Source: a virus
Lineage: Duplodnaviria; Heunggongvirae; Uroviricota; Caudoviricetes
Reading direction: 5' to 3' (one strand)
DNA: 64,000 bases
IMG/VR virus record: IMGVR_UViG_2703718819_000006
Part shown: positions 7,546 through 47,033 of the stretch, piece after piece
Layout of the letters: the number at the start of each line of letters is the position of its first letter
Position numbering within the stretch: position 1 is the first letter of the stretch
Translations under genes and position numbers: made by a program
The notes under the pieces: generated by a model
Database searches by the model: none
Told to the model about the DNA's origin: nothing
Seen by the model: only the letters and a program-made list of their open reading frames with translations

Positions 7546-8289
7546 TTACCATGTTCCCCATATAGGGTTTTCCAATAATCTCGCCTCCAACGAATTGGCT
7601 ACTATTGCCGTTTGCAACGTTGGTTGGGGATAGTTTGCAAAGTCTGAATACTCATTTTCCTGCGTGACACGTTTATCTGCGGCATGTTTAACACCACTTG
7701 CTATGAAATGACGCATGATGCCCAACAGCCTCCGACTGTCTGCACTATCGTTTGCTAAAACATGAGGGAGCTGAAGTTCGATTTCTACCATTTCTCCATA
7801 CTTACCAACAAACTGTAGTTTGTCCGCACTGTACTTTTTATCCCTCCTTTGGATAAGGAAACCAGTAAAAGCATCACCTGGCGATGCCAAACTATCCACC
7901 CGCTTATTGGCAAGTCGAATAAGGTTCGTGAAAGCCATACAGTGATGCGCACCCATTCCCCCAAAGAACCCTTCGCTATTAATGTTAAGATCTTCAGTTT
8001 CATGGGATGCAATAAACCCAGGCCCGACGTTGGGAAGATATCCCCCCTCAACAAAAGGATTAATCAGGATCGGCGCAATACATCCAGGTGGTAGTGATTT
8101 CAAACTTTGCATCAATGGCGTCTCGGATATTAGACCAAGCAACGCGGCGAATTGTACTCCGTCAATATTGTTGCTGCCCCACAGAATACGTGGAGCCGCA
8201 CCATTGGAAGTATGCCCATTGATCAGTTTTATCGACTGCATCACTGCAAATACCTGCAAAAACTGCGAGCGGCTTAATTTAAACGACAT
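7546..8289 (-). CDS. hypothetical protein
   Basis: 247-aa ORF coupled to neighbours in the recombination cluster; no motif I can assign. Confidence 0.5.
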   Translation of the reverse strand: MSFKLSRSQFLQVFAVMQSIKLINGHTSNGAAPRILWGSNNIDGVQFAALLGLISETPLMQSLKSLPPGCIAPILINPFVEGGYLPNVGPGFIASHETEDLNINSEGFFGGMGAHHCMAFTNLIRLANKRVDSLASPGDAFTGFLIQRRDKKYSADKLQFVGKYGEMVEIELQLPHVLANDSADSRRLLGIMRHFIASGVKHAADKRVTQENEYSDFANYPQPTLQTAIVANSLEARLLENPIWGTW

Positions 8290-10195
8290 AGCTGCGCCCC
8301 TCTTTAACTTCCAGCGTAATAGTTTCCCGGAACCATGACTTCATCTCTTTATGGGAGATAATCAGCACAGTACCTCGCTCGCGAGCTTTGGACTCCAAAA
8401 TACCCATGAGGCGTTCAAGACCGGCTGTATCGAGTGCATCGTCAATTTCGTCGCCGATAAACAAATCGATGTTTTTACTCGCCCGGTTACTAACCAGATC
8501 CTGCAATGCCAAAGAACACGCAATGCGAACCTTCCGCTTCTCACCACCAGAGAGGGTCTGGAACGACTTACTTGAACCTTTCTTCTGCACACTAATGTTG
8601 AATTTGTCGCGATACTCACCTTTTTTAGTGACATCCATCGTCGACCACTCAGCAGTAATATTCCCGTCAGACAACGTATTGAGATACTCGGCAGTGCGTG
8701 TATTCAGGAAAGGCGTAACAGACGTCAAAATATGAGAACGCACCCCGGCAGGAGAGTAGACCTGACGAGCTTTTTCCAATAGCAACGTTTGTTCCTGAAT
8801 AGCCTTCAACTCATCTTTTAAGGACTTGAAGGTAGACTTACTGGATACCAGGTTATCTTCGTGTCTGGCGATAAGAGCAATAAACGGATTAATCTCTTTT
8901 GATATACGATCGACCTCAGTACGAGCACGAGTCACAAGAGACTCAATAGCAACAACCTCCTTCTCACGATGACGCAAAGATGAGAGTTGTTTCGTAAGCT
9001 CTTCAATCCGGGCAATGATAGCCGTTACATCAGGTGTCGTTTTAACAAGGGCAGACTCAATGCTTAACGCCTTCTCAAGATTCGTTTTGTGTTTAGCCAT
9101 TGCCTCTGCAAGTGTCTTCGCCTGACCAATTTCCTGACGTGCTTGTTCAATGAAATTCTCCTTCACCGTTGATAGATCTTCTTCGCAGTAGGCTTTGCCA
9201 CAAGTAGGGCATGGTGATCCCACTTTAGTACCAACCTCTTCTGCTTTGGTCTTAAAATTACGCGCGCGGTTCATTGCATCAGCCTGACTATTTTCTGTAG
9301 CGTTGATGCTTGCCCGAATATCAGTTATCGCACCACGAACTTTGAGCAACTTGGCGTCATGTTCTTCTTTTGAGGCTAACTTTTTGCGCTCACTTTCGAT
9401 TGCCTTCTCGGTATCACGGATCTGTTCGGGAAGAGTGCGGATCTCAAGTTCAACTTCCGTTAACTCAACTTCGGCACTGGCCAGCCCAGCCAGGGCATCG
9501 TCATAACGTTTAGAACGCTCTTGCTCCCATGATTCAGAGGAGGCTTTCGCTGACTCAATTTCTGACTGTGTTGCCTCAATGGTCGAGATTGTCGACTCCA
9601 ATTTGGTTTTAACCACATCCATACGTGCGGCAGCTGCATTAGCTCGCTCACGAGCAATAGCGTAGGCGCGTGTCAGTCTGTCAACGCCAGCGGCTTCTTC
9701 TACGATGGTTTTGAGGTTTTTGTCGGACATTCCAGGTAAATCTGGCATAGCTTCTTGGCTCGCATAGATGGAAGCCATGAAAACCTCTTTAGATGCACCG
9801 ATCAGACGCTCGACGAACTCTTGCGTCAGCGCATCTTTGCCTTTCGTCATATCGCCGTCTTCACCACGAACGATAAGCCGATTTTTGAACTCTTTGTGTT
9901 TACGGTGACGAATGATCGCATATCTCTTGCCTTCATCCTCGATGGTTACTGCAACACGACAGTTCTTTTCATGGTCGGTAGACAACACATCGTCACCCTT
10001 CACACCATGAGCTGTTTCGCCATAAAGACACCACATCAGGCTATTCATTAGCGTTGACTTTCCAGAGCCATTACTTGATGCGGAACTATCATCACTATTA
10101 ACACCCTGAATGAGTACTAAACCACGCTGATCTAACTCGACCTCCGCGCTGGCGATAGCCATAAAATTCTCAACCTGGAGCTTTAAAAACTTCAT
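8279..10195 (-). CDS. sbcC: SbcC/Rad50-like recombination ATPase
   Basis: 638 aa; N-terminal Walker A (GVNSDDSSASSNGSGKSTLMNSL), long central coiled-coil, C-terminal signature region (LSGGEKRKVRIACSLAL...FIGDEIDDALD). Confidence 0.85.
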   Translation of the reverse strand: MKFLKLQVENFMAIASAEVELDQRGLVLIQGVNSDDSSASSNGSGKSTLMNSLMWCLYGETAHGVKGDDVLSTDHEKNCRVAVTIEDEGKRYAIIRHRKHKEFKNRLIVRGEDGDMTKGKDALTQEFVERLIGASKEVFMASIYASQEAMPDLPGMSDKNLKTIVEEAAGVDRLTRAYAIARERANAAAARMDVVKTKLESTISTIEATQSEIESAKASSESWEQERSKRYDDALAGLASAEVELTEVELEIRTLPEQIRDTEKAIESERKKLASKEEHDAKLLKVRGAITDIRASINATENSQADAMNRARNFKTKAEEVGTKVGSPCPTCGKAYCEEDLSTVKENFIEQARQEIGQAKTLAEAMAKHKTNLEKALSIESALVKTTPDVTAIIARIEELTKQLSSLRHREKEVVAIESLVTRARTEVDRISKEINPFIALIARHEDNLVSSKSTFKSLKDELKAIQEQTLLLEKARQVYSPAGVRSHILTSVTPFLNTRTAEYLNTLSDGNITAEWSTMDVTKKGEYRDKFNISVQKKGSSKSFQTLSGGEKRKVRIACSLALQDLVSNRASKNIDLFIGDEIDDALDTAGLERLMGILESKARERGTVLIISHKEMKSWFRETITLEVKEGRSYVV

Positions 10196-10383
10196 ATAAC
10201 ACCTTTGATACCGTGTGTTAGCTTTTGACCTTCTTTCAATCTGAACTCCGTATGCGCCGGGAAGGATCTGCGCCTCAATACGCCTTTTCTGGTTAACCTT
10301 CCAAGATAAAACGCTACGGGATTTCCTTGTGGCGGGTAGGGCTTGTGAAACATCACCGTCTGGCCTCGTTCAAGTCTTTTCAT
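10192..10383 (-). CDS. possible small basic protein (63 aa)
   Basis: ATG-initiated ORF in the 229-bp spacer between sbcD and sbcC; its stop overlaps the sbcC start (ATGA). No clear Shine-Dalgarno. Confidence 0.2.
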   Translation of the reverse strand: MKRLERGQTVMFHKPYPPQGNPVAFYLGRLTRKGVLRRRSFPAHTEFRLKEGQKLTHGIKGVI

Positions 10384-10424
10384 CGTGATGGCAAAGTCTC
10401 GAAAGCTCCCATAACGACTTTGCC

Positions 10425-11510
10425 TCACACAGCCTCCGAACTCTCCGCTTCGGTGAGGATTTCCTGACACAAAATATCCAACTTGCTTAGATCAAATCCG
10501 CCGTCAGTATCGTGGACAATCTTGCAATAAGCAGATACCGACTCTCCCAGGCTATCGATTTTGCTGGTTTCCGTTGTGCTTGCTGTCCCTTCCATCATTG
10601 ATGACTTACGGATGAAGTTGCACACGACACCTTTTGCACCCATTGTTTTGAGGATGTTCTGGTACTTAATGCCTTCTTCATCGTTCTCAATTACGGCGCG
10701 GAAACGCACGTAGTTGCCGCGAATTTGGTCATCGGCAACATAATCTTCCAGGTTAATGAATTTAGGCGCACTGGTTTCGTAGTGACTGAAACTGCCGTCC
10801 GGGTTTACGATCATGTAACCAGCCAGAGATCCAACATCTCCCCAATTTTGATGGGTCAGCGCACCGACACTGATAACTCCAGGAATGACCTCTTTGTGGT
10901 TGTGGTAATGCCCACTAAGCACGAGACGAAAGCCGATATCCTTTAACTCCTGCGCATCGATACCGACGTCAGGCATTGTTGGAATGGCTTTGTTAATGGA
11001 TGTATGGATAACAACGTCATGATTATCACCTTCTACGCTCTTACGTAATGCTTTCAGATCGCTGATAAGCTCCGCATGATTGTTACGCCAGCTAATCAGG
11101 TGGACAGTCACATCACCAATTTTTATTGAGTGTGGGCGTTTGCCACATACGATTACCACGCCGATAGAACTCAGCGATGCTGCTGCGTTGGCGCTATATA
11201 CTGAATCGTTGGTTTCAAGATCGTGATTACCGGCCAGCATTACTACTGTCAGATCAAGCTCGTTGATAATCCACTTGTACGTTTCAGTTACGTAATGCAA
11301 AACAGAAGGGGACACAGTTCCTCGGACGTGAAATGTATCACCGGCAATCAGCATGTACTTACAACCGGCCTTCTTCATGGCGATGGCTGCTTCTTTCGTT
11401 GCTTCCAACTGTATTTCAAGTCTGGAGTTAAGCCCCTCAGCGTTCGTCGTGGAGAACGCATCCCATTTGTGGTAGTGGCAGTCAGAAATGACGCCGTATG
11501 GCAAAGTCAT
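10425..11510 (-). CDS. sbcD: SbcD/Mre11-like nuclease
   Basis: 361 aa; calcineurin-like phosphoesterase motifs (VISDCHYH, IAGDTFH, MLAGNHD, SGHYHNH). Confidence 0.85.
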   Translation of the reverse strand: MTLPYGVISDCHYHKWDAFSTTNAEGLNSRLEIQLEATKEAAIAMKKAGCKYMLIAGDTFHVRGTVSPSVLHYVTETYKWIINELDLTVVMLAGNHDLETNDSVYSANAAASLSSIGVVIVCGKRPHSIKIGDVTVHLISWRNNHAELISDLKALRKSVEGDNHDVVIHTSINKAIPTMPDVGIDAQELKDIGFRLVLSGHYHNHKEVIPGVISVGALTHQNWGDVGSLAGYMIVNPDGSFSHYETSAPKFINLEDYVADDQIRGNYVRFRAVIENDEEGIKYQNILKTMGAKGVVCNFIRKSSMMEGTASTTETSKIDSLGESVSAYCKIVHDTDGGFDLSKLDILCQEILTEAESSEAV

Positions 11511-11764
11511 GTGTTTTTCCTTTGTGGTTATTTTGATACAAATTTTAAGAGCAATGAGAAGGTAAACAACTATGCATAACGGTATGTTAGGAATGAAACG
11601 AGCGCATTAATATACAAAATTTATAAGTAAGTATATACCTATTTGTTGTGACGCAACTTTGCTTGTCTGTATGACTAAAAATAAGACAGGATCACTGTAG
11701 AACGCTATGAGAGCTATTTTGAGGGGGCGTAGATTCTATCTACGCCAATATACGATCTGGAGGG

Positions 11765-12409
11765 TTACAGCGCGTCAGTGGGCTTTTTACGCGCTGCGTT
11801 TATGCTTATGACGCCAGCTTTTGGACGTGGGTCAACAAGGTTAAGCTCTTCTTCACTGTGGTATTCGAGGTCGAACTCACGTTTTACATGTCTGATGTAG
11901 ATTGCGGTGAGTAGGCTATCTTTGGTCAAAAAGTGTCCGTAGGATTTGCGGATCACTTCTTCAACCTTCTCGATTTTCTCACCACCCATGCAGAGGTGAT
12001 TAAACCGGCTGTGTTTCCGCAACATCTCGTCAACTGGGCCTGAGTAAACCTTGTCTACTTTCCCAAAACGAATGATTTTTCCTGTATCTGCGGATACAAG
12101 GCAAATCAGTTTGTCTGGTGATAAACGATCTCGCCACGTCACACCTGAACGGAGTGTGTTGAAGTAGGGGGCATCCAATCCGATGATCGGTTTACGAAAT
12201 GCGAGCAATGGAACGTACCTAATACAACTATTCAAATGAAAGTTCACACCAGCCTTATCAAGTTTAATTCTGGTTTCGTAGATCGGGCACTTCGCCGCTA
12301 TACCGCAGATATCACAAAGTAACTTCTGCTTATTCAGGTTGGAATTTGATTCGATAGTGTAGGAGCCGTCCTCAAGACGACGAACCCAGCGCGTGCGTTT
12401 TAGATCCAT
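11765..12409 (-). CDS. hypothetical protein (Cys-containing, possible zinc-binding)
   Basis: 214-aa ORF with CDICGIAAKC; no family recognised. Confidence 0.45.
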   Translation of the reverse strand: MDLKRTRWVRRLEDGSYTIESNSNLNKQKLLCDICGIAAKCPIYETRIKLDKAGVNFHLNSCIRYVPLLAFRKPIIGLDAPYFNTLRSGVTWRDRLSPDKLICLVSADTGKIIRFGKVDKVYSGPVDEMLRKHSRFNHLCMGGEKIEKVEEVIRKSYGHFLTKDSLLTAIYIRHVKREFDLEYHSEEELNLVDPRPKAGVISINAARKKPTDAL

Positions 12410-12496
12410 AATCGTTTTTTCAGTAGTTATTGGCCGATGCTACGATAACTCATTAGGCATACCTTAATCTGCATTTGCCTGTTTACTTATCCCAGT

Positions 12497-12568
12497 TATC
12501 CACTGGATAGATCCAAATAAGAGATCCCAAGTAAGATCAAATAGAAGATCCAAAGAGATCCCCGATCG
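12497..12568. promoter_or_regulatory. DnaA-box-like site plus GATC cluster (origin-proximal module A)
   Basis: TTATCCACT at 12497-12505, then six GATC sites within about 60 bp (12510-12568) embedded in about 11-bp direct repeats. Confidence 0.5.
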
Positions 12569-12610
12569 CCTCTAGCCGTTGCGGTTACTGGTCTGAAAGG
12601 GTGTTGCCAT

Positions 12611-12710
12611 CCACTATGGAGAGCAAAGAAACCTCTGTAGAGAGCTGAATAACCGCTATGAAGAGTAAAACAACCACTCTGGAGAGCTGTATATATCCAC
12701 TGTAGAGAGT
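12611..12710. repeat. iteron array A (5 direct repeats, about 21-bp period)
   Basis: CCACTATGGAGAGC / CCTCTGTAGAGAGC / CCGCTATGAAGAGT / CCACTCTGGAGAGC / CCACTGTAGAGAGT starting at 12611, 12632, 12653, 12674, 12697. Confidence 0.7.
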
Positions 12711-12720
12711 AGAGCACATT

Positions 12721-12880
12721 GTCTTTTATGGATAACTTAATGACTTAATTCTTCATTAACATACTGATATACATAGATATATTTTAAACTCTACTCTTAG
12801 TCATGATTCTTATGTCCTTAAATATCCACAGAAGAGTAGAGTTACCTGTTCTTGAAATCCTCTGATTTTTATCCACAGGC
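12721..12880. promoter_or_regulatory. AT-rich spacer with perfect DnaA box (TTATCCACA at 12869-12877)
   Basis: Visibly AT-rich stretch between the two iteron modules; consensus DnaA box at its right edge and a near-consensus ATATCCACA at 12822-12830. Confidence 0.45.
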
Positions 12881-12991
12881 CCGATCCAGTAATTCAGATC
12901 ACAAAGAGAACCAAAGAGACCCATAAAGACCCAATAAGATCCCCGCCCACCTCAAACCGTTGTGCCATCTGCCTTCAGACATGATCGATAT

Positions 12992-13110
12992 CCACTATAG
13001 AGAGCGAATAATCCACTATAGGGAGCAAAGCAACCACTATAGAGAGGAGAAAAACCACTATAGACGGTAGGATAACCGCTGTGATGAGTGCTACTATCCA
13101 CTGTAATCAG
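12992..13110. repeat. iteron array B (6 direct repeats, 21-bp period) immediately upstream of rep
   Basis: CCACTATAGAGAG-type cores at 12992, 13013, 13034, 13055, 13076 (degenerate) and 13097; preceded by GATC sites at 12883, 12897, 12938, 12983. Confidence 0.75.
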
Positions 13111-13151
13111 CAAAGGCCACCAAAGCCGTCGAATAACAAGAGACATTTGGA

Positions 13152-14207
13152 ATGAGCGAAAACGGCAATAAAAACATAGCGATCGTTGAAGCATTTTCAG
13201 AAACAGATAAAAAGACAGGCGAAGTTGTTACGTTGGTTCCTAACACTAATAACACTGTTCAGCCTGTTGCTTTGATGCGTCTGGGCCTCTTCGTTCCGAC
13301 GCTGAAATCGACATCCAGAGGAAGAAAGGGGCAAATGGTCTCTATGGATGCCTCTGCTGAACTCAAACAGCTGTCTCTGGCAAAAGCCGAAGGGTACGAA
13401 GACATAAGGATCTCTGGCCTTCGGCTTGATATGGATAACGACTTTAAAACGTGGGTGGGAATAATCCACGCGTTTGCCAAACACAAGGTCGTTGGCGATA
13501 CTGTCACGTTGCCGTTCGTTGAGTTTGTAAGGCTGTGTGGCATTCCGACCGCCAGGTCATCAGCGAAGTTACGCAAACGCCTGGACAGTTCGCTAAGCCG
13601 TATTGCCACAAACACCATCTCGTTCCGTAGCAAAGGCTCTGATGAGTTTTACGTAACGCATCTTGTGCAAACGGCAAAATATAGTGTCAAGCACGATACG
13701 GTCGAACTGAAAGCAGATCCCAAGATTTTCGAACTCTACCAGTTCGACAAAAAGGTTCTTCTGCAACTCCGGGCTATAAACGAACTCTCAAGAAAAGAAT
13801 CCGCTCAGGCGCTTTATACTTTTATTGAAAGTTTGCCGCCTGATCCGGCACCAATATCACTAGCCCGTTTACGCGCCAGACTTAATCTGACAAGTCGCAC
13901 TATTACTCAGAATGCGACGGTAAGAAAGGCTATGGAACAGCTGCGAGAGATAGGATATCTCGATTACACGGAAGTTAAGCGCGGAAACTCGGTCTACTTC
14001 GTCATCCACTATAGGCGGCCAAAGTTACGCCAGGCACAAATATCAACAAAAATCGATAATGATGAGACGGAATATAGCCTCCCAGATGAGAATCAAGATG
14101 ACATTATCGACGTTGTGCCTGACGAAAAAGAAGGCAAAATGGTCATGTTGAGTAAAGAAGAACTGGCACTTCTCGAAGAGTTGCGCAAGGCAAAGACTCG
14201 CAAATAG
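13152..14207 (+). CDS. repA: iteron-binding replication initiator (RepA/RepE-like)
   Basis: 351-aa plus-strand ORF flanked on both sides by iteron arrays; the segment [13 protein letters not shown]...[14 protein letters not shown] parallels the RepE region AMRLYESLCQY...IVSLKIDWIIERYQL as I recall it. Confidence 0.65.
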
Positions 14208-14212
14208 CCCAA

Positions 14213-14690
14213 CCACTGTAGTTAGTAGTAAGGCTCACTATCCACTGTAGTGAGCCTTACTTATATCTGTAATTCGCTATCCACTATAGTGAGTATCGTT
14301 ATCTGTTGATAACCACTGTAGGCAGTAGAATGCAAATACTGAATTAAATGTTAGTGATCACTAACACTGATGAAACAAGGGCTGCGAGGTTAGTGGTCAC
14401 TGGGTATCTTGGAAAATTTACTGTCTATAGTGGTTGTTGTCGCCCTCATCTTTGAGCGTATCCACTGTGGCGAGTGGATATCCACTGAAAACAGCAAAGG
14501 CTTACTCACCATAGTGGATACCCGCTGGACATCTCACTCCAATACTCACCATAGTGGTTGTTTGATGCGAATGAAAGGCTGTCTACTCGCTACAGTGGTT
14601 AGCAGATATGTAGGAAGGTTTTGTTACTGACTACAGTGGATAATGAGCTGGATACGAATGCGGTGAGCAGACTACTCACCGCAGTGGTTG
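14213..14690. repeat. iteron array C downstream of rep (at least 10 copies, both orientations)
   Basis: Forward CCACT(G/A)TAG copies at 14213, 14244, 14279, 14311; inverted C(T/C)A(T/C)AGTGG copies at about 14417, 14495, 14535, 14588, 14629, 14682. Confidence 0.7.
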
Positions 14691-14729
14691 GTGCTATTAG
14701 TGTATTTTCTTCAACAGACCCCAAAGTGT

Positions 14730-14909
14730 TCAGGCTTTTGTAGTCAGTTTTCCTGTTTCTGGATCGTACATACGCCATTCACGCCGCTGGTGGACGATAT
14801 ACCCATCTTCACGTTCCAGACGCTCAAGAATGCCAGGCTGCTTGAAACCCTTAGCACGCCAGTAGCCGCTTGTTTTCTCGATTTCCAGACCTGCCAGTGT
14901 TAATGCCAT
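14730..14909 (-). CDS. small hypothetical protein (59 aa)
   Basis: My translation MALTLAGLEIEKTSGYWRAKGFKQPGILERLEREDGYIVHQRREWRMYDPETGKLTTKA; its ATG overlaps the stop of the upstream gene (TAATG). Below the ORF-track size cutoff. Confidence 0.3.
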   Translation of the reverse strand: MALTLAGLEIEKTSGYWRAKGFKQPGILERLEREDGYIVHQRREWRMYDPETGKLTTKA

Positions 14910-15244
14910 TATCCAACCTCCTTGCAGTCATCGAAAAGGTAGCTTTGCTGAGAAGCGTGAACGCCATAGAAGCCCTTGTATTTGTTGTATACGAAGTGGT
15001 CTTCTCCGACGCCGGTTAATTTGCCATTACGGTTTGTGAGATATGGGGATGACAACACTCGATCGTCACGCACAACATAGAACTGGTCGCCGCTGTCTAC
15101 GACCATCGCTCCATATGGTGCTTTTATGACGTCGGTAAGAGCGCCATTCTTAACGTCGGCTACAGACATTTCACACTGATAAACAGTGGTGTCGGCCACA
15201 ACGATCGAAGAAAGGAACAACAGCGCAAATGGGATGGCCTTCAT
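14909..15244 (-). CDS. secreted (signal-peptide) protein of unknown function
   Basis: 111 aa; N-terminus MKAIPFALLFLSSIVVA looks like a cleavable signal peptide; no lipobox Cys. Confidence 0.55.
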   Translation of the reverse strand: MKAIPFALLFLSSIVVADTTVYQCEMSVADVKNGALTDVIKAPYGAMVVDSGDQFYVVRDDRVLSSPYLTNRNGKLTGVGEDHFVYNKYKGFYGVHASQQSYLFDDCKEVG

Positions 15245-15420
15245 GCTGCCACCTCTTTGATTACATCAAATGCTGAATTAAATACGAGCACGATAGCCAA
15301 AGCGTTTATGACTACGTCGTTCACCGGGGAAAAGACTTTACGAATGACACCAGTGAAAATGCAGTCGATGACAAAAGCTATTGACACGATGAGTAACAAG
15401 TATTCAATAAAAATCTTCAT
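15241..15420 (-). CDS. small membrane protein (59 aa)
   Basis: My translation MKIFIEYLLLIVSIAFVIDCIFTGVIRKVFSPVNDVVINALAIVLVFNSAFDVIKEVAA has two hydrophobic segments; stop overlaps the downstream start (ATGA). Confidence 0.35.
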   Translation of the reverse strand: MKIFIEYLLLIVSIAFVIDCIFTGVIRKVFSPVNDVVINALAIVLVFNSAFDVIKEVAA

Positions 15421-15459
15421 GATAGGTAGATACTAACTTATATAAATTTTACTGTAAAC

Positions 15460-15735
15460 TCACTCAAAAGTGCTGATGCTTAAAATACGCTCAAGATGTG
15501 CGGCATCTTCATCACTGATTTGTTGAGTCTCTTCTACGTACCAACAGTTGCCGTTATGCCAACAAACACCATCATCATCAACCATCACTGAATCAGCGTC
15601 ATGACCTGTATATTCAACGAGAATACGCTGGATCAGTGCGTCAGTTTCTTCGTCGTTAAGGCCATCGGCTTTGACCATAAAAAGCGGAAACACGTCATAG
15701 ACAGTGCTGGTAACGATTCGAACTAAAACTCTCAT
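15460..15735 (-). CDS. hypothetical protein
   Basis: 91-aa acidic ORF in a co-oriented gene array. Confidence 0.45.
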   Translation of the reverse strand: MRVLVRIVTSTVYDVFPLFMVKADGLNDEETDALIQRILVEYTGHDADSVMVDDDGVCWHNGNCWYVEETQQISDEDAAHLERILSISTFE

Positions 15736-15790
15736 GTGTTTTTCCTTTTGTGGTTAGTGTTTACTTATTTTGTTAGTTATGAATAGGCGA

Positions 15791-16216
15791 TCAATCATCT
15801 TGTTTAGGGAAAAACTGTTCAATAACTCTGTCAACGGCTGTGTCTATATGGAGTAGATGCCACACAACCATATCTTTGCTCCCCATGCCTTGTGTGAATA
15901 TCACGTCATACTTACGCCATGCGCAGTGGAACCAATATGCTGAGTCATCAATTGGTAAATCCTCTCCCGCCTCTTTGAAGTATTTCAGCAGCATTGCTTG
16001 CTCTGCCGTTGGCGTTGGACCTATTTCCTGAGCGTACATACGGATAAATCGCTGCCAGTCTGTCTCGTCGGTGGTCGGATCTGGTGGATTCATTTCGGCG
16101 ATAGCGTTTCGTAGCTGATGCGCCCAATCAGGTTCAGGAAAGCCTTTTGATACTTCATCATCAATAACATCCAGAGCCGCGTTTGCGGCATCGTAGAGTT
16201 TCTTAATTGCTGCCAT
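15791..16216 (-). CDS. hypothetical protein
   Basis: 141-aa ORF; acidic, Trp-rich; no recognisable motif. Confidence 0.5.
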   Translation of the reverse strand: MAAIKKLYDAANAALDVIDDEVSKGFPEPDWAHQLRNAIAEMNPPDPTTDETDWQRFIRMYAQEIGPTPTAEQAMLLKYFKEAGEDLPIDDSAYWFHCAWRKYDVIFTQGMGSKDMVVWHLLHIDTAVDRVIEQFFPKQDD

Positions 16217-16277
16217 GTTTACTTCTCCTTATAAATAGGAAAATAATCACCTTTGAAAAAATAAAGCAAAGATATAT

Positions 16278-16667
16278 TCACTCCGATACAAGACGTTTAT
16301 ATGCTTCGATGTCTCGACGTGCTTCACCGAGTTTTCTTCTTAGGTCCATATTTTCTGATTCAAGTTTTTCAATGTTTTTTTGGTATCGGCCACGATGTTC
16401 TTCCCAGGCATCCTGATATGCCTTCATATATGTCGTATTAGCCTTTCTTTTTGCCTGACGAACCGCGTGGTGATTTTCTACAAACCAGTCAGGGTCGTTA
16501 AATGCTGCTCTTGCGCATTTATACCAATAATCGGTTGACTCTCTGTTTAACCAATGAATGGTGATAAATGGTAATCGAATAGACAGAATTTTTCGTTTGG
16601 AATCTCGCTCACCAAACATATGCCCTTTTTTTATCTTTAAACCGAACCCAGGTTGAATTAAAAGCAT
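16278..16667 (-). CDS. hypothetical protein with C-terminal coiled-coil
   Basis: 129-aa ORF (true start may be the internal MFGERD); C-terminal heptad-like region. Confidence 0.45.
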   Translation of the reverse strand: MLLIQPGFGLKIKKGHMFGERDSKRKILSIRLPFITIHWLNRESTDYWYKCARAAFNDPDWFVENHHAVRQAKRKANTTYMKAYQDAWEEHRGRYQKNIEKLESENMDLRRKLGEARRDIEAYKRLVSE

Positions 16668-16687
16668 TGTCAGTACCTCAGATGCAT

Positions 16688-17428
16688 TTATGGCAGTAAT
16701 TCTTTACCGCTTTCCATTTTGGTGATAGAGACAGTAGGATCATCGTTAATGCATGATTCTGTGCCTAATGCTGCTAACCCTTTACGCATAACCGTGCCCG
16801 CAACATACGCCTCAATCTCCGCCTTTCCAGATGAGACAATTTCATCCATTTGTTCCTGCATTAATTCGGTAGCAAAGCACAGATTTTCAGGAAGGTTAGC
16901 TACAGCAGATGCTAGTTTTCTATATAGTTCTTCAAGGTCACGTTTTCCAGCTCTTCCTTTTTTCACAAGTTCACCTAGCTCTGAAACTTGCTGATTAAGT
17001 CGATCAATCTCACTATTCGTAGCGGCCTTTATTTGATCGTTGAATTTTTGCCGAATACTTTTTTGCTCGGCAATATCATGAACTCTAATTGAGTCTCCAA
17101 TGGTTTTATATGAAATAGTGCATGGCACACCTTCGCCCACTCCAAAACTGCTAACCATAGCAGCCCATTGTGCCTGGCTAAGTCTAATTTCAACTAAAGG
17201 CCGTCTATTGCAACTTCTTTGTGGGCGGGTTCGTTCATTGTCTAAGGACAGTTCCGCCTCGTAAACGCCTATTTCAATATAGTCTCTATGTTCCAGTTCT
17301 GAATCAAATAGGCGAATGCCAGTTGTGCTAACACGGCTTGTTTTCACAAGACCGAACGCTGGATGTGTTTGAATTTTTTCCCCATGTTTATTAAGGGTCG
17401 TTTTTGGTTCTTCAATTTTTCTTTTCAC
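16688..17428 (-). CDS. hypothetical protein
   Basis: 246-aa ORF; no motif assigned. Confidence 0.5.
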   Translation of the reverse strand: MKRKIEEPKTTLNKHGEKIQTHPAFGLVKTSRVSTTGIRLFDSELEHRDYIEIGVYEAELSLDNERTRPQRSCNRRPLVEIRLSQAQWAAMVSSFGVGEGVPCTISYKTIGDSIRVHDIAEQKSIRQKFNDQIKAATNSEIDRLNQQVSELGELVKKGRAGKRDLEELYRKLASAVANLPENLCFATELMQEQMDEIVSSGKAEIEAYVAGTVMRKGLAALGTESCINDDPTVSITKMESGKELLP

Positions 17429-17474
17429 CTTATTAACCTCTATGCTTCATGCGTAAAGCTAAATGACAATTTTT

Positions 17475-18299
17475 TTAATATCCGGCGTATTCGTATTCTT
17501 CATTTAGACCGTATTCTTGTGGAGTGATACCAGGACAACATAACTCAAAGGCGAACTTGCGCCATTTGATTTTTTCTTCTGACGATTGTTTGTTATTCGC
17601 CGGTGCAATGTAGTCATATTCCCATTTGCCGTTGCGAAGTAAAATGAATCCGCAGTTATTGCCGAAGTCTTCGTCTGCATAACGTATTACAAACTCAAGG
17701 TGCGGGAACTTTCTAGCCATCGCTTGATAAATTGGTTTTGGCATAGACCAGGCTGTTTCAAAGCGAATCACCAACTCACCACCAGTTGCGGCATGTCTTG
17801 CAAGACGTTTTTTATAGATTCGTTTTGCATATGCTCGAACGTGTGTATGGCGGAAATTATGGCCGTACTTAATACGTGTAGGGATACGTTTTACGGGCAT
17901 TTCGATGTTGTAGGCATTCCATTTTGTTCCCCAATTAGCTCGCGACCAGTCAAACCATGAGTAATAGCCATAGCGACGATAATTCTCAAGCCGCATAAGA
18001 GCCTGCTCTTTGATTTTGCGAATTTCCTTGCGTGTCATTCCTGATTCACGCATAGCTAATTCGATCTGTTCTGGAGTCTTTAATTCACCGAACATGTGGT
18101 CGTAAACTGTTTCGCCCGCCATTGCAGAGGCCATGCGCCTGATATGATTGTTTTCTTCCATTTCTATACTTTTCGGACGTCTGCAAATGGTATTAAAGTC
18201 AATTAGACCTTTTTTGTTAGTTATGGCACGTATGAAATCTAAGCGTTGTTTATTTGTACCACCTATGACTCGGATTTCGTTTGTAATGTGGTTGGGCAT
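17475..18299 (-). CDS. hypothetical protein (Trp/Tyr-rich motif YSWFDWSRANWGTKWNAYN)
   Basis: 274-aa ORF; preceded by an AACAATTTGTT palindrome 20-40 bp upstream. Confidence 0.5.
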   Translation of the reverse strand: MPNHITNEIRVIGGTNKQRLDFIRAITNKKGLIDFNTICRRPKSIEMEENNHIRRMASAMAGETVYDHMFGELKTPEQIELAMRESGMTRKEIRKIKEQALMRLENYRRYGYYSWFDWSRANWGTKWNAYNIEMPVKRIPTRIKYGHNFRHTHVRAYAKRIYKKRLARHAATGGELVIRFETAWSMPKPIYQAMARKFPHLEFVIRYADEDFGNNCGFILLRNGKWEYDYIAPANNKQSSEEKIKWRKFAFELCCPGITPQEYGLNEEYEYAGY

Positions 18300-45970: not shown

Positions 45971-46008
45971 TGCATTGGCGCAATGTACGCGCCAATGCAT
46001 AATTTTTA
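45971..46008 (+). terminator. rho-independent terminator between convergent GIY-YIG and par genes
   Basis: 11-bp stem TGCATTGGCGC/GCGCCAATGCA with 7-nt loop, followed by TAATTTTT. Confidence 0.6.
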
Positions 46009-46365
46009 ACCTTTCTTCATCAACTCTCGTTTGATTTCATCGGTACGCATCGTGACATCGGCAGCGGTGATCGCCTCATTCAATTTCACGATGTCCTCGA
46101 TTTCCTGCGGTGACTTCTCTGCCAGATGGAAAATGGCTGCTCGAATCACGTCAGAACGAGTGAACTTCTCGAAGCGAGGGATGAACTTCATCATCTCCAG
46201 CAGTTCGAAGTATTCGTCCTCCAGTGACATTGTGCGGCTTTTAATTTTCTCTTTGCCACGAGTCGGGCGTCCCTGTGGTCTGACTGGTTGGCGCAAAGGA
46301 GTTGTGTTCTTAGCCGGTGCATCAGGCTCTTTGCGCTTTGCTAGGTCACCCATTTTCATGGACAT
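46006..46365 (-). CDS. small partition/centromere-binding protein (ParG/ParB-like)
   Basis: 119-aa ORF immediately downstream of and overlapping parA; basic Pro/Arg-rich N-terminus. Confidence 0.4.
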   Translation of the reverse strand: MSMKMGDLAKRKEPDAPAKNTTPLRQPVRPQGRPTRGKEKIKSRTMSLEDEYFELLEMMKFIPRFEKFTRSDVIRAAIFHLAEKSPQEIEDIVKLNEAITAADVTMRTDEIKRELMKKG

Positions 46366-47033
46366 TATTCTTCTTCCTCCAGACTCAACAGATAATCTAC
46401 AAATTCTTCAAACTCGGCTTCCGCCTTTTTGTCGCGCTCGCTACCGGTCATTTCAAAGATAGAACGACCAGACTCTTCCGCATCATCATAGACGTTGCGG
46501 TTATATAGATTGACTGGCGCAGACTCGATTCCAAACGTCTCAACAATCTCTTTAGCCGCCAGAATGCGAGACACTTGTGATGGCAAAGCCGGGCACTGGT
46601 TCATGACCGCGCGGACCTTCACTTTATCGTTTACATTGCGAACATTGTCGATAATAGGATCGATGTCACGTAAAGATTTCAAATCACGACGCTTAGGACG
46701 CAGCGGGATAATGATAACGTCAGCCATCAGCATCGCTTGTCGCTGAATTTCGGAGTCGAAGCCACCAGCATCTACCACTACAAACTCAGCTCTACCCTGA
46801 AGCGATTTTAGGTGCTTAATGATGTCATCCTGAACGTATGCAAAAGGAATCAGCTCAAGGTCTTCGTTCTGTCGACGGTCTTCACACCAGCTCGTTGTCG
46901 TGCGCTGAATATCTATATCGGTAATATAAACCTTCTTCTTCTTTTTGACTTTCAGGCAAACGGCAATTTGCTGGGCAACGGTGGATTTGCCAGGCCCGCC
47001 CTTTGTGCCGCCAACCACAAAGATCTTGGTCAT
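46365..47033 (-). CDS. parA: ParA-family partition ATPase (small type Ib)
   Basis: 222 aa; deviant Walker A KIFVVGGTKGGPGKST; ParA/MinD-like VVVDAGG. Confidence 0.8.
   Translation of the reverse strand: MTKIFVVGGTKGGPGKSTVAQQIAVCLKVKKKKKVYITDIDIQRTTTSWCEDRRQNEDLELIPFAYVQDDIIKHLKSLQGRAEFVVVDAGGFDSEIQRQAMLMADVIIIPLRPKRRDLKSLRDIDPIIDNVRNVNDKVKVRAVMNQCPALPSQVSRILAAKEIVETFGIESAPVNLYNRNVYDDAEESGRSIFEMTGSERDKKAEAEFEEFVDYLLSLEEEE

Follow-up and report, generated by a model that had tools for sequence, protein, structure and literature searches.

A probable plasmid-prophage replicon of the P1 RepA/RepFIB iteron family with two tandem origin-type cassettes in an SSU5-type phage-plasmid

In IMG/VR virus record IMGVR_UViG_2703718819_000006 (Caudoviricetes), of which a stretch of 64,000 nucleotides (nt) was analysed, an initiator-like gene runs on the plus strand between phage genes of the opposite orientation and is surrounded by short repeats; this whole stretch is called the window in the following and all coordinates are window positions. 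The locus raises the question of whether the gene and its repeats constitute a replicon through which the phage can persist as a plasmid, as an earlier note made from the sequence had proposed, and, if so, which part of the repeats would serve as the origin. With regard to the first question, we assign the region 12496–14689 to the plasmid-prophage replicon of an SSU5-type phage-plasmid, belonging to the P1 RepA/RepFIB family of iteron replicons, with a probability of about 0.93. With regard to the second, the repeats upstream of the gene prove to be two tandem cassettes, M1 (distal to the gene) and M2 (proximal to it), and we put it at roughly even odds against the alternatives that M1 would be the principal origin, with M2 acting mainly as promoter and operator.

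The assignment is carried in the first place by the near-identity of this region to known plasmids. Its 2.35 kb share 99.8% identity with Escherichia phage Cyrano (OV696614) and 83% with Salmonella phage SSU5, and they match 382 plasmid records, 57 of these at 99% identity or more and 360 predicted to be non-mobilizable; more than 50 near-identical matches are circular, non-mobilizable IncFIB plasmids. IncFIB is also the type given in PLSDB (MOB-suite) for the identical plasmids that were inspected and for pMT1, and typing databases already hold this rep gene, for example as PlasmidFinder IncFIB(pLF82-PhagePlasmid), with the rep gene of SSU5 (IncFIB) included as well. Cyrano is plasmid pLF82 of E. 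coli LF82, for which 5.5 plasmid copies per cell were determined by quantitative polymerase chain reaction on repA and which was seen to form SSU5-like virions (PMC9928086); within the SSU5 supercommunity, IncFIB is the predominant type (PMC7969092). Low-copy plasmid replication, which the earlier note had suggested from the layout of the locus, is thus established for an element 99.8% identical to the one in the window. The replicon, its typing and its plasmid lifestyle are already known: the finding is correct and not new, and its value as a discovery is small, with the replicon publicly annotated as RepA, represented by a named PlasmidFinder type and measured in its plasmid state.

The gene itself is the following:

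13152–14207, plus strand: repA, an intact open reading frame with ATG start, encoding a predicted iteron-binding initiator of the Rep_3 family (351 amino acids; Rep3_N and Rep3_C domains, homology to P1 and FIB RepA, predicted fold)

The Rep-like gene that the earlier note had placed here is therefore present and intact, and Pfam profiles assign its product to the plasmid initiators: Rep3_N (winged helix 1, WH1; PF01051) matches residues 115–225 with 42.2 bits against a cut-off of 22.4 (E = 1.3e-10), and Rep3_C (WH2; PF21205) matches residues 236–281 with 22.6 bits, a marginal pass over its cut-off of 21.1. The protein is 100% identical to Cyrano RepA, and the annotations of Cyrano, SSU5 and pMT1 likewise name the gene RepA. 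Searches returned 571 RepA homologues across Enterobacterales plasmids, with PF01051 present in 120 of the 120 that were listed. Over residues 40–293 the protein shares 47.5% identity with P1/P7 RepA (E = 1e-71), whilst in a multiple alignment identities amount to 92% with SSU5 and pMT1, 62% with classical FIB, 47% with the Klebsiella pKpn-type Rep and 46% with P1. A single-sequence AlphaFold model was unusable, with a mean predicted local distance difference test (pLDDT) score of 38.8, and was discarded; an alignment-based model was used instead, which with 58 sequences reached a core pLDDT of 70–90. The top 11 Foldseek matches of this model in the PDB were all iteron initiators, namely RctB domains 2–3, F RepE (both as dimer on operator DNA and as monomer on iteron DNA) and R6K pi on iteron DNA, with E between 2.4e-7 and 1.5e-4 and a probability of 1.00. 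As far as sequence and model can tell, RepA is a two-winged-helix initiator of the Rep_3 family and is predicted to bind iterons.

The repeats were mapped with position-weight matrices (a 19-mer and a 16-mer) seeded on the upstream copies, sites being accepted at 15 bits or more. Across the 64 kb, 24 iterons with the consensus A[A/T]CCACT[A/G]T[A/G]GnnAG[T/C] reached this threshold, and every one of them lies inside 12609–14689; the top score in the rest of the window was 14.4 bits with the 19-mer matrix and 13.7 bits with the 16-mer. Eleven iterons (5 + 6) are situated upstream of repA, one within the gene and 12 downstream. The core 9-mer CCACTRTAG occurs 42 times in the window when up to one mismatch is allowed, compared to 15.5 ± 4.1 in shuffled sequences, of which 0 in 100 reached 42, and 20 of the 42 matches fall inside the replicon region: the clustering of the iterons is well above chance. 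Tandem Repeats Finder independently reported periods of 21 base pairs (bp) and 42 bp. Both of the repeat groups described in the earlier note are found, that is, two upstream modules of five and six copies with a 21-bp period (spacing here 21–23 bp) and at least ten downstream copies in both orientations, the latter now counted as six forward and six reverse.

Upstream of repA, the region contains the following features (where no strand is given, none applies):

12496–12504, plus strand: DnaA box of M1, TTATCCACT, with one mismatch to TTATCCACA; identical to the second DnaA box of P1 oriR
12505–12567: A-rich short repeats of M1 with six GATC (Dam) sites at 12510, 12523, 12535, 12547, 12557 and 12564; A+T 61%; candidate unwinding region
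12568–12608: G+C-rich spacer of M1 (59% G+C), well conserved in SSU5 and pMT1 and positioned like its G+C-rich counterpart in P1 oriR
12609–12710, plus strand: five M1 iterons starting at 12609, 12630, 12651, 12672 and 12695; 18.5–24.9 bits; spacing 21, 21, 21 and 23 bp
12711–12868: A+T-rich (71%) inter-cassette spacer of 158 bp, with DnaA-box-like sites at 12727 (minus strand, TTATCCATA) and 12822 (plus strand, ATATCCACA)
12869–12877, plus strand: DnaA box of M2, TTATCCACA, a perfect consensus and one of only two perfect boxes in the window; TTATACACA in SSU5 and pMT1
12878–12989: degenerate GATC-repeat region and spacer of M2, with GATC at 12883, 12897, 12938 and 12983; three units read GAACC, GACCC and GACCC
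12990–13111, plus strand: six M2 iterons starting at 12990, 13011, 13032, 13053, 13074 and 13096; 18.5–24.1 bits; spacing 21, 21, 21, 21 and 22 bp; candidate repA operator
13089–13097, plus strand: candidate extended −10 element of the repA promoter, TGCTACTAT, read from the sequence between the last two M2 iterons

M1 (12496–12710) and M2 (12869–13111) align with each other end to end, and the order of elements is the same in both copies: a DnaA box, A-rich short repeats based on GATCC, a G+C-rich spacer and the iterons. The upstream modules of the earlier note thus stand as far as the iterons are concerned and can be refined: on this alignment they are two complete, tandem, homologous origin cassettes of the P1 oriR type, going beyond plain blocks of iterons. 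In the annotated P1 replicon a DnaA site is followed by short repeats with five Dam sites, a G+C-rich spacer, five incC iterons with the repA promoter, repA and nine incA iterons; P1 oriR shares the 21-nt stretch TTATCCACTGGATAGATCCAA with M1, the GATC series of both end in AGATCCC(T/C)GATCG, and the GATC repeats of M1 are homologous to the five annotated Dam sites. Given the sequence identity between the RepA proteins and the alignment of the DnaA-box/GATC half with P1 oriR, the comparison with P1 reflects true homology and not mere analogy. Of the two layouts that the earlier note had named as models, P1 oriR-repA-incA therefore holds for both the initiator and the origin, whilst F RepE is related at the level of the fold only, and the closest family by RepA sequence is in fact RepFIB.

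An alignment of 13 cassettes, in which the M1/M2 pairs of five lineages were set beside the one origin each of P1, classical FIB and the pKpn type, showed all of them to be homologous (pairwise z = 6–19 against shuffles). One cassette is present in each of the latter three, and the tandem pair was found in SSU5, in Y. pestis pMT1, in an E. coli group at 78% identity (represented by L010) and in Pantoea vagans pPag1, a non-phage megaplasmid of 168 kb whose iterons follow the consensus of the window. At full coverage the tandem-pair region occurs in at least 335 plasmid records, including S. Typhi pHCM2 and plasmids from Citrobacter, Enterobacter and Buttiauxella, and no single-cassette variant was seen among the matches listed (335 records with the region; a spread sample of 744 records). 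As the pair extends from phage-plasmids to Pantoea pPag1, the duplication would appear to be old and to be maintained. A mosaic origin, with a "P1-like" M1 and an "FIB-like" M2, was considered and rejected: according to both the pairwise scores and the 13-cassette alignment, lineage-specific sequence is common to M1 and M2 in SSU5 and in pMT1, which makes an old tandem duplication the better reading than mosaic acquisition. An apparent exchange with P1/pKpn-type sequence is limited to the outermost 5′ end of the window's M1, which reads TTATCCACTGGATAGATCC and is closer to P1 and pKpn than to the TTATTCACAGGCCCGATCC of SSU5 and pMT1.

Judged by their sequences, M1 and M2 are not equivalent. 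M1 contains the densest GATC cluster of the window (6 in 80 bp, the next best being 3), with identical spacing of the six sites in the window, SSU5 and pMT1, and 5–6 GATC sites are retained by M1 in every lineage of the cassette alignment. In case of M2, the losses of GATC differ by lineage: the SSU5 type shows GAACC/GACCC/GACCC together with an insertion of 8 bp, and Pantoea shows GTTCC; the degenerate units and the insertion are preserved as such in SSU5, pMT1 and L010. The DnaA box of M1 reads TTATTCACA in SSU5 and pMT1, a difference restricted to the degenerate N of TTATNCACA, and all five M1 iterons (5/5) are kept in SSU5, pMT1, L010 and pPag1. The M2 iteron block occupies a position equivalent to that of P1 incC. 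Between the cassettes, the spacer is the least conserved part of the control region, except for CATTGTCTT...TGGATAACT immediately after the last M1 iteron, a segment that holds the reverse DnaA-box-like site.

The repA promoter is likely carried by M2. The candidate −10 element is conserved in SSU5 and reads TGCTAATAT in pMT1, in P1 the annotated PrepA −10 is likewise found between the final two iterons of incC, and M1 has no conserved counterpart of it. The best sigma-70-like site of the region, TTAACA-16-TATATT at 12756–12783 on the plus strand (10/12 matches), lies in the A+T-rich spacer and is directed through M2 towards repA; it was set aside as the repA promoter because it is not conserved in SSU5 or pMT1.

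Downstream of repA, the iterons form two blocks:

14211–14326, plus strand: forward block of four control iterons at 14211, 14240, 14279 and 14311; spacing 29–39 bp
14420–14689, mixed strands: distal block of eight control iterons from the position-weight scan, at 14420 (minus), 14460 (plus), 14480 (plus; weak, 17 bits), 14504 (minus), 14544 (minus), 14585 (minus), 14626 (minus) and 14674 (minus)

Over the array as a whole (14211–14689) the 12 iterons are spaced 20–48 bp apart, save for one gap of about 109 bp at a conserved core that is not an iteron, and the reverse-strand iterons of the distal block are 40–48 bp apart. P1 incA is built in a like manner, with three forward and then six inverted iterons at 30–41 bp spacing: in both cases a forward block is followed by an inverted one. 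The number of downstream iterons differs by insertion or deletion of whole units, with 12 in the window, 14 in pMT1, 15 in SSU5 and 16 in L010, and such changes could tune the copy number.

On the model of P1 and FIB, from whose homology all steps of the mechanism are taken, the replicon would function as follows. Monomers of RepA would bind to the 21-bp-phased iterons of an origin cassette and, together with host DnaA on the adjoining DnaA box, would open the A-rich, Dam-methylated segment of GATC repeats, upon which the host replisome could be loaded for theta replication. RepA bound to the repA-proximal iterons of M2 would cover the repA promoter and in this way repress its own synthesis, whilst the 12 downstream iterons, as the equivalent of P1 incA and of FIB repeats E–K, would titrate RepA and handcuff the origin iterons, with low copy number and incompatibility as the outcome. 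For lytic growth the phage would presumably rely on a helicase, a primase and a Pol III alpha of its own, whose genes lie elsewhere in the window.

A number of points weigh against this reading, some of them against the identification of the initiator and others against the roles given to the cassettes. PDB searches by sequence and by profile, using RepA alone or alignments of 6 and of 58 members, gave no match, so that the fold comparison was needed in the first place, and the template modelling (TM) scores of that comparison are modest at 0.42–0.52 (normalised by target); furthermore, Rep3_C passes its cut-off by only 1.5 bits. We found no experiment on the cis elements of this replicon, be it RepA-iteron binding, minimal-replicon cloning or origin mapping. 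The GC skew shows no switch at the replicon in the 64-kb window, although the skew follows gene orientation and is hence uninformative on origin use. The proposed repA promoter was not reported by a consensus promoter scan, which missed the candidate −10 because there is no good −35. The role of Dam methylation is carried over from P1, where the opening of oriR reportedly depends on it. Finally, the left half of M2 is better conserved than that of M1 (91% compared to 80%, window against SSU5), an observation that also argues against M2 being a decaying copy.

As to which cassette initiates, we lean slightly towards M1 as the principal origin because of its retention of GATC sites and the DnaA-box-like sites at both of its ends. 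The most serious competing explanation is that M2 alone is the working origin and operator, as is the case for P1 oriR/incC, with M1 being either an additional array for negative control or handcuffing or an old duplicate that is tolerated. M2 lies directly before repA, where P1 has oriR/incC and FIB its upstream repeats, it possesses the only perfect DnaA box of the region, a single DnaA box is reportedly sufficient for P1 oriR, and the left half of M2 is more conserved than that of M1. However, three GATC units of M2 have been lost in the SSU5 lineage and, through other changes, one in Pantoea, whilst M1 keeps 5–6 everywhere; in addition, M1 maintains a DnaA box, a spacer and phasing that would be needless for a pure titration array and that are lacking from P1 incA and from the FIB downstream arrays. 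A working origin confined to M2 thus deserves serious consideration, even if we find it somewhat doubtful.

The preference for M1 can be extended to the subgroup of SSU5, pMT1, pHCM2 and pPag1 as a whole, in which anciently duplicated cassettes may have divided the labour: the distal, Dam-site-rich cassette would be the site of initiation, and the proximal cassette would act mainly as repA promoter and operator and possibly as a second, conditional origin. We offer this extension tentatively and rate it as a rather doubtful possibility; if true, it would represent a natural system in which initiation is separated from autoregulation in an iteron replicon. The tandem cassettes also provide a simple genetic system in which to ask if origin firing and initiator autoregulation are physically separable.

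It is unlikely, in our estimate, that both cassettes fire, be it as alternatives or in cooperation, for example in response to the Dam/SeqA or DnaA state or to the host. Each cassette does retain its DnaA box, GATC repeats, spacer and at least five phased iterons as far out as Pantoea pPag1, and the uniform presence of the pair among the matches listed for the 335 records with the region agrees with such a joint use; the loss of GATC sites from M2, however, suggests that the cassettes are not equivalent. More improbable still is that the RepA-iteron unit is, or is in addition, the lytic replication origin of the phage. The unit is situated in a block of phage DNA-metabolism genes (SbcCD, RuvC, RecA-like, exonuclease, SSB) and the window yielded no separate origin for lytic replication, but the same type of replicon maintains the non-phage plasmid pPag1 and, in Y. 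pestis, pMT1, and a large array of negative-control iterons limits copy number and is ill-suited to runaway lytic replication. In P1, moreover, oriR is the plasmid origin and lytic growth has a separate oriL/repL. That the replicon is an inactive relic, with the element persisting through another replicon or through integration, is scarcely credible: a tyrosine recombinase ("integrase") is annotated elsewhere in the element, but repA is intact with a protein identical to that of Cyrano, the cis elements are conserved without exception, this is the only typed replicon of hundreds of closed circular plasmid records, the plasmid copy number was measured with repA primers (PMC9928086), and the Cyrano annotation lists no further rep gene over the stretch that matches the window.

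Comparison with related replicons places the locus more closely. Cyrano/pLF82 and related phage-plasmids of E. coli and E. albertii are essentially the same element, a few single-nucleotide polymorphisms and one insertion or deletion apart. The full layout is kept in SSU5, pMT1 and pHCM2 at about 80% DNA identity, and their architecture is the same unit for unit (5 + 6 iterons, two cassettes, the intragenic iteron, the split downstream array and the non-iteron core); SSU5 and pMT1 differ in their 14–15 downstream iterons, compared to 12 in the window, and in a diverged inter-cassette spacer. The searchable literature yielded no account of such a bipartite arrangement of cassettes and, for pMT1, pHCM2 or SSU5, none of iterons or origin duplication; since the search covered neither the 1998 pMT1 sequence papers nor the older P1/RepFIB papers, a prior description is possible.

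By RepA sequence, RepFIB (P307/F/pO157 type) is the closest family, ahead of P1. Its origin follows the same plan of DnaA box, GATC repeats, GATCCCC, spacer and iterons, repeats of about 21 bp are found on either side of repA, and control is organised alike, with the origin upstream of the gene and the control iterons (repeats E–K in FIB) downstream. The iterons themselves are of the ATCCACTATAGAGAG type in the window, of the ATAAACTGTA type in classical FIB and of a 19-bp GATGTGTGCTGGAGGG type in P1 (IncY). As the iteron sequence is wholly unlike that of classical FIB, specificity and incompatibility should differ, and by these sequence comparisons the replicon is a member of the P1 RepA/RepFIB family in a distinct specificity subgroup. 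Classical FIB further differs in having one origin cassette and in residing on conjugative F-type plasmids. Work on FIB replicons has shown that the upstream iterons are part of the origin and that the downstream block alone displaces the plasmid whilst the upstream block does not, which fits handcuffing; the rep start is CTG there (PMC11983097), compared to ATG for repA in the window. By analogy with FIB curing cassettes, the downstream iteron block of the window would be an obvious tool for curing or for incompatibility typing, which is of practical relevance in that SSU5-type phage-plasmids are common in clinical E. coli, Shigella, Salmonella Typhi and, as pMT1, Y. pestis.

P1 differs from the window in that its one cassette has extra DnaA boxes at the right end, in that parAB directly follows incA, and in that its phage backbone is unrelated: P1 is a myovirus and the window an SSU5-type siphovirus, both of them phage-plasmids. 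The tandem cassettes, conserved from a Pantoea megaplasmid to phage-plasmids, show one replicon module to be common to phages and to non-phage plasmids. F RepE with ori2-incC (RepFIA), R6K pi and V. cholerae RctB share the dual winged-helix initiator fold and the iteron logic of initiation, autorepression and handcuffing, but RepE, pi and RctB have no detectable sequence similarity to the RepA of the window and their origins are of a different anatomy.

RepA of the window exceeds P1 RepA by 39 residues at the N-terminus and by about 58 at the C-terminus. The C-terminal extension (residues ~294–351; 14028–14204), absent from P1 RepA, is common to the FIB and pKpn-type proteins; it consists of an acidic linker modelled with low confidence and then a conserved terminal helix, predicted at residues 335–350, and the sole lead on it is a weak, sub-threshold match to T4_y05I_C. 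PHROG phrog_775, as well as RefSeq phage annotations derived from it (NC_005856, NC_018843), calls the RepA family, including P1 RepA, a "replication helicase". This label is a propagated annotation error: the family is one of winged-helix origin-binding initiators.

Two further features lie within repA and in the gap of the downstream array:

14004–14019, plus strand: intragenic iteron ATCCACTATAGGCGGC, encoding IHYRR; 18.3 bits; identical in SSU5 and pMT1
14350–14410: conserved non-iteron core within the control array, with two GTTAGTGRTYAC 12-mers (14350, 14389) and AGTGGTCACT, an inverted pair of the iteron core CCACT

The intragenic iteron is absent from the repA of pPag1. Classical FIB RepA has the same IHYRR residues but encodes them with four different synonymous codons, so that the protein sequence does not force the iteron match at 14004; the match may be a functional RepA site or a coincidence. 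In the non-iteron core, GATGAA.CAAGGGCTGCGAGGTTAGTGGTCACTGGGT is invariant in the window, SSU5 and pMT1, the invariant part near 14370–14410 includes AGTGGTCACT, and the GTTAGTGRTYAC 12-mer is enriched (5 matches compared to 0.65 expected). The arrangement of AGTGGTCACT recalls the dimer-binding inverted half-iterons in the operators of RepE and pPS10; autorepression by F RepE proceeds through an inverted-repeat operator that is bound by dimers. The first 12-mer is, in the window only, a perfect 16-bp palindrome with a central GATC. A conserved RNA hairpin or small RNA at 14330–14420 was considered, as folding of this gap gave z = −2.9 and −2.2 in the window, and was rejected: only in the window does the first 12-mer have inverted symmetry, direct repeats being present there in SSU5 and pMT1. 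A scan of 12300–14900 against Rfam (E up to 1) returned no match and with it no known antisense-RNA control element.

With respect to the surroundings of the replicon, the flanking genes on both sides (8279–12409 and 14730–18299) are on the minus strand and repA is on the plus strand, which bears out the opposite orientation pointed to in the earlier note, and the gene neighbours are the same as in Cyrano and SSU5. The annotation of Cyrano that matches the window comprises tail, lysis, toxin-antitoxin, ParA, helicase, primase, ligase, Pol III alpha, recombination and SbcCD genes; from its phage genes, its own replication genes and the RepA unit, the window can be described as a phage-plasmid with lytic replication genes and a separate plasmid replicon. 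There is no par operon adjacent to the replicon: a ParA-type ATPase (46365–47033, minus strand; Pfam MipZ, AAA_31, CbiA) is encoded about 32 kb from repA. Directly downstream of parA, a gene for 119 amino acids (46006–46365, minus strand) sits where a ParB/ParG-like centromere-binding partner would be expected; it is annotated as a RelE/ParE toxin in Cyrano and has no Pfam match. Next to the replicon, position 14732 differs from Cyrano and plasmid pDFL.5 by a C-to-A single-nucleotide polymorphism, which introduces a TGA stop and shortens a "P1 Cra-like" open reading frame (14730–14909, minus strand) from 70 to 59 amino acids, and the window is thus a close relative of Cyrano and not Cyrano itself.

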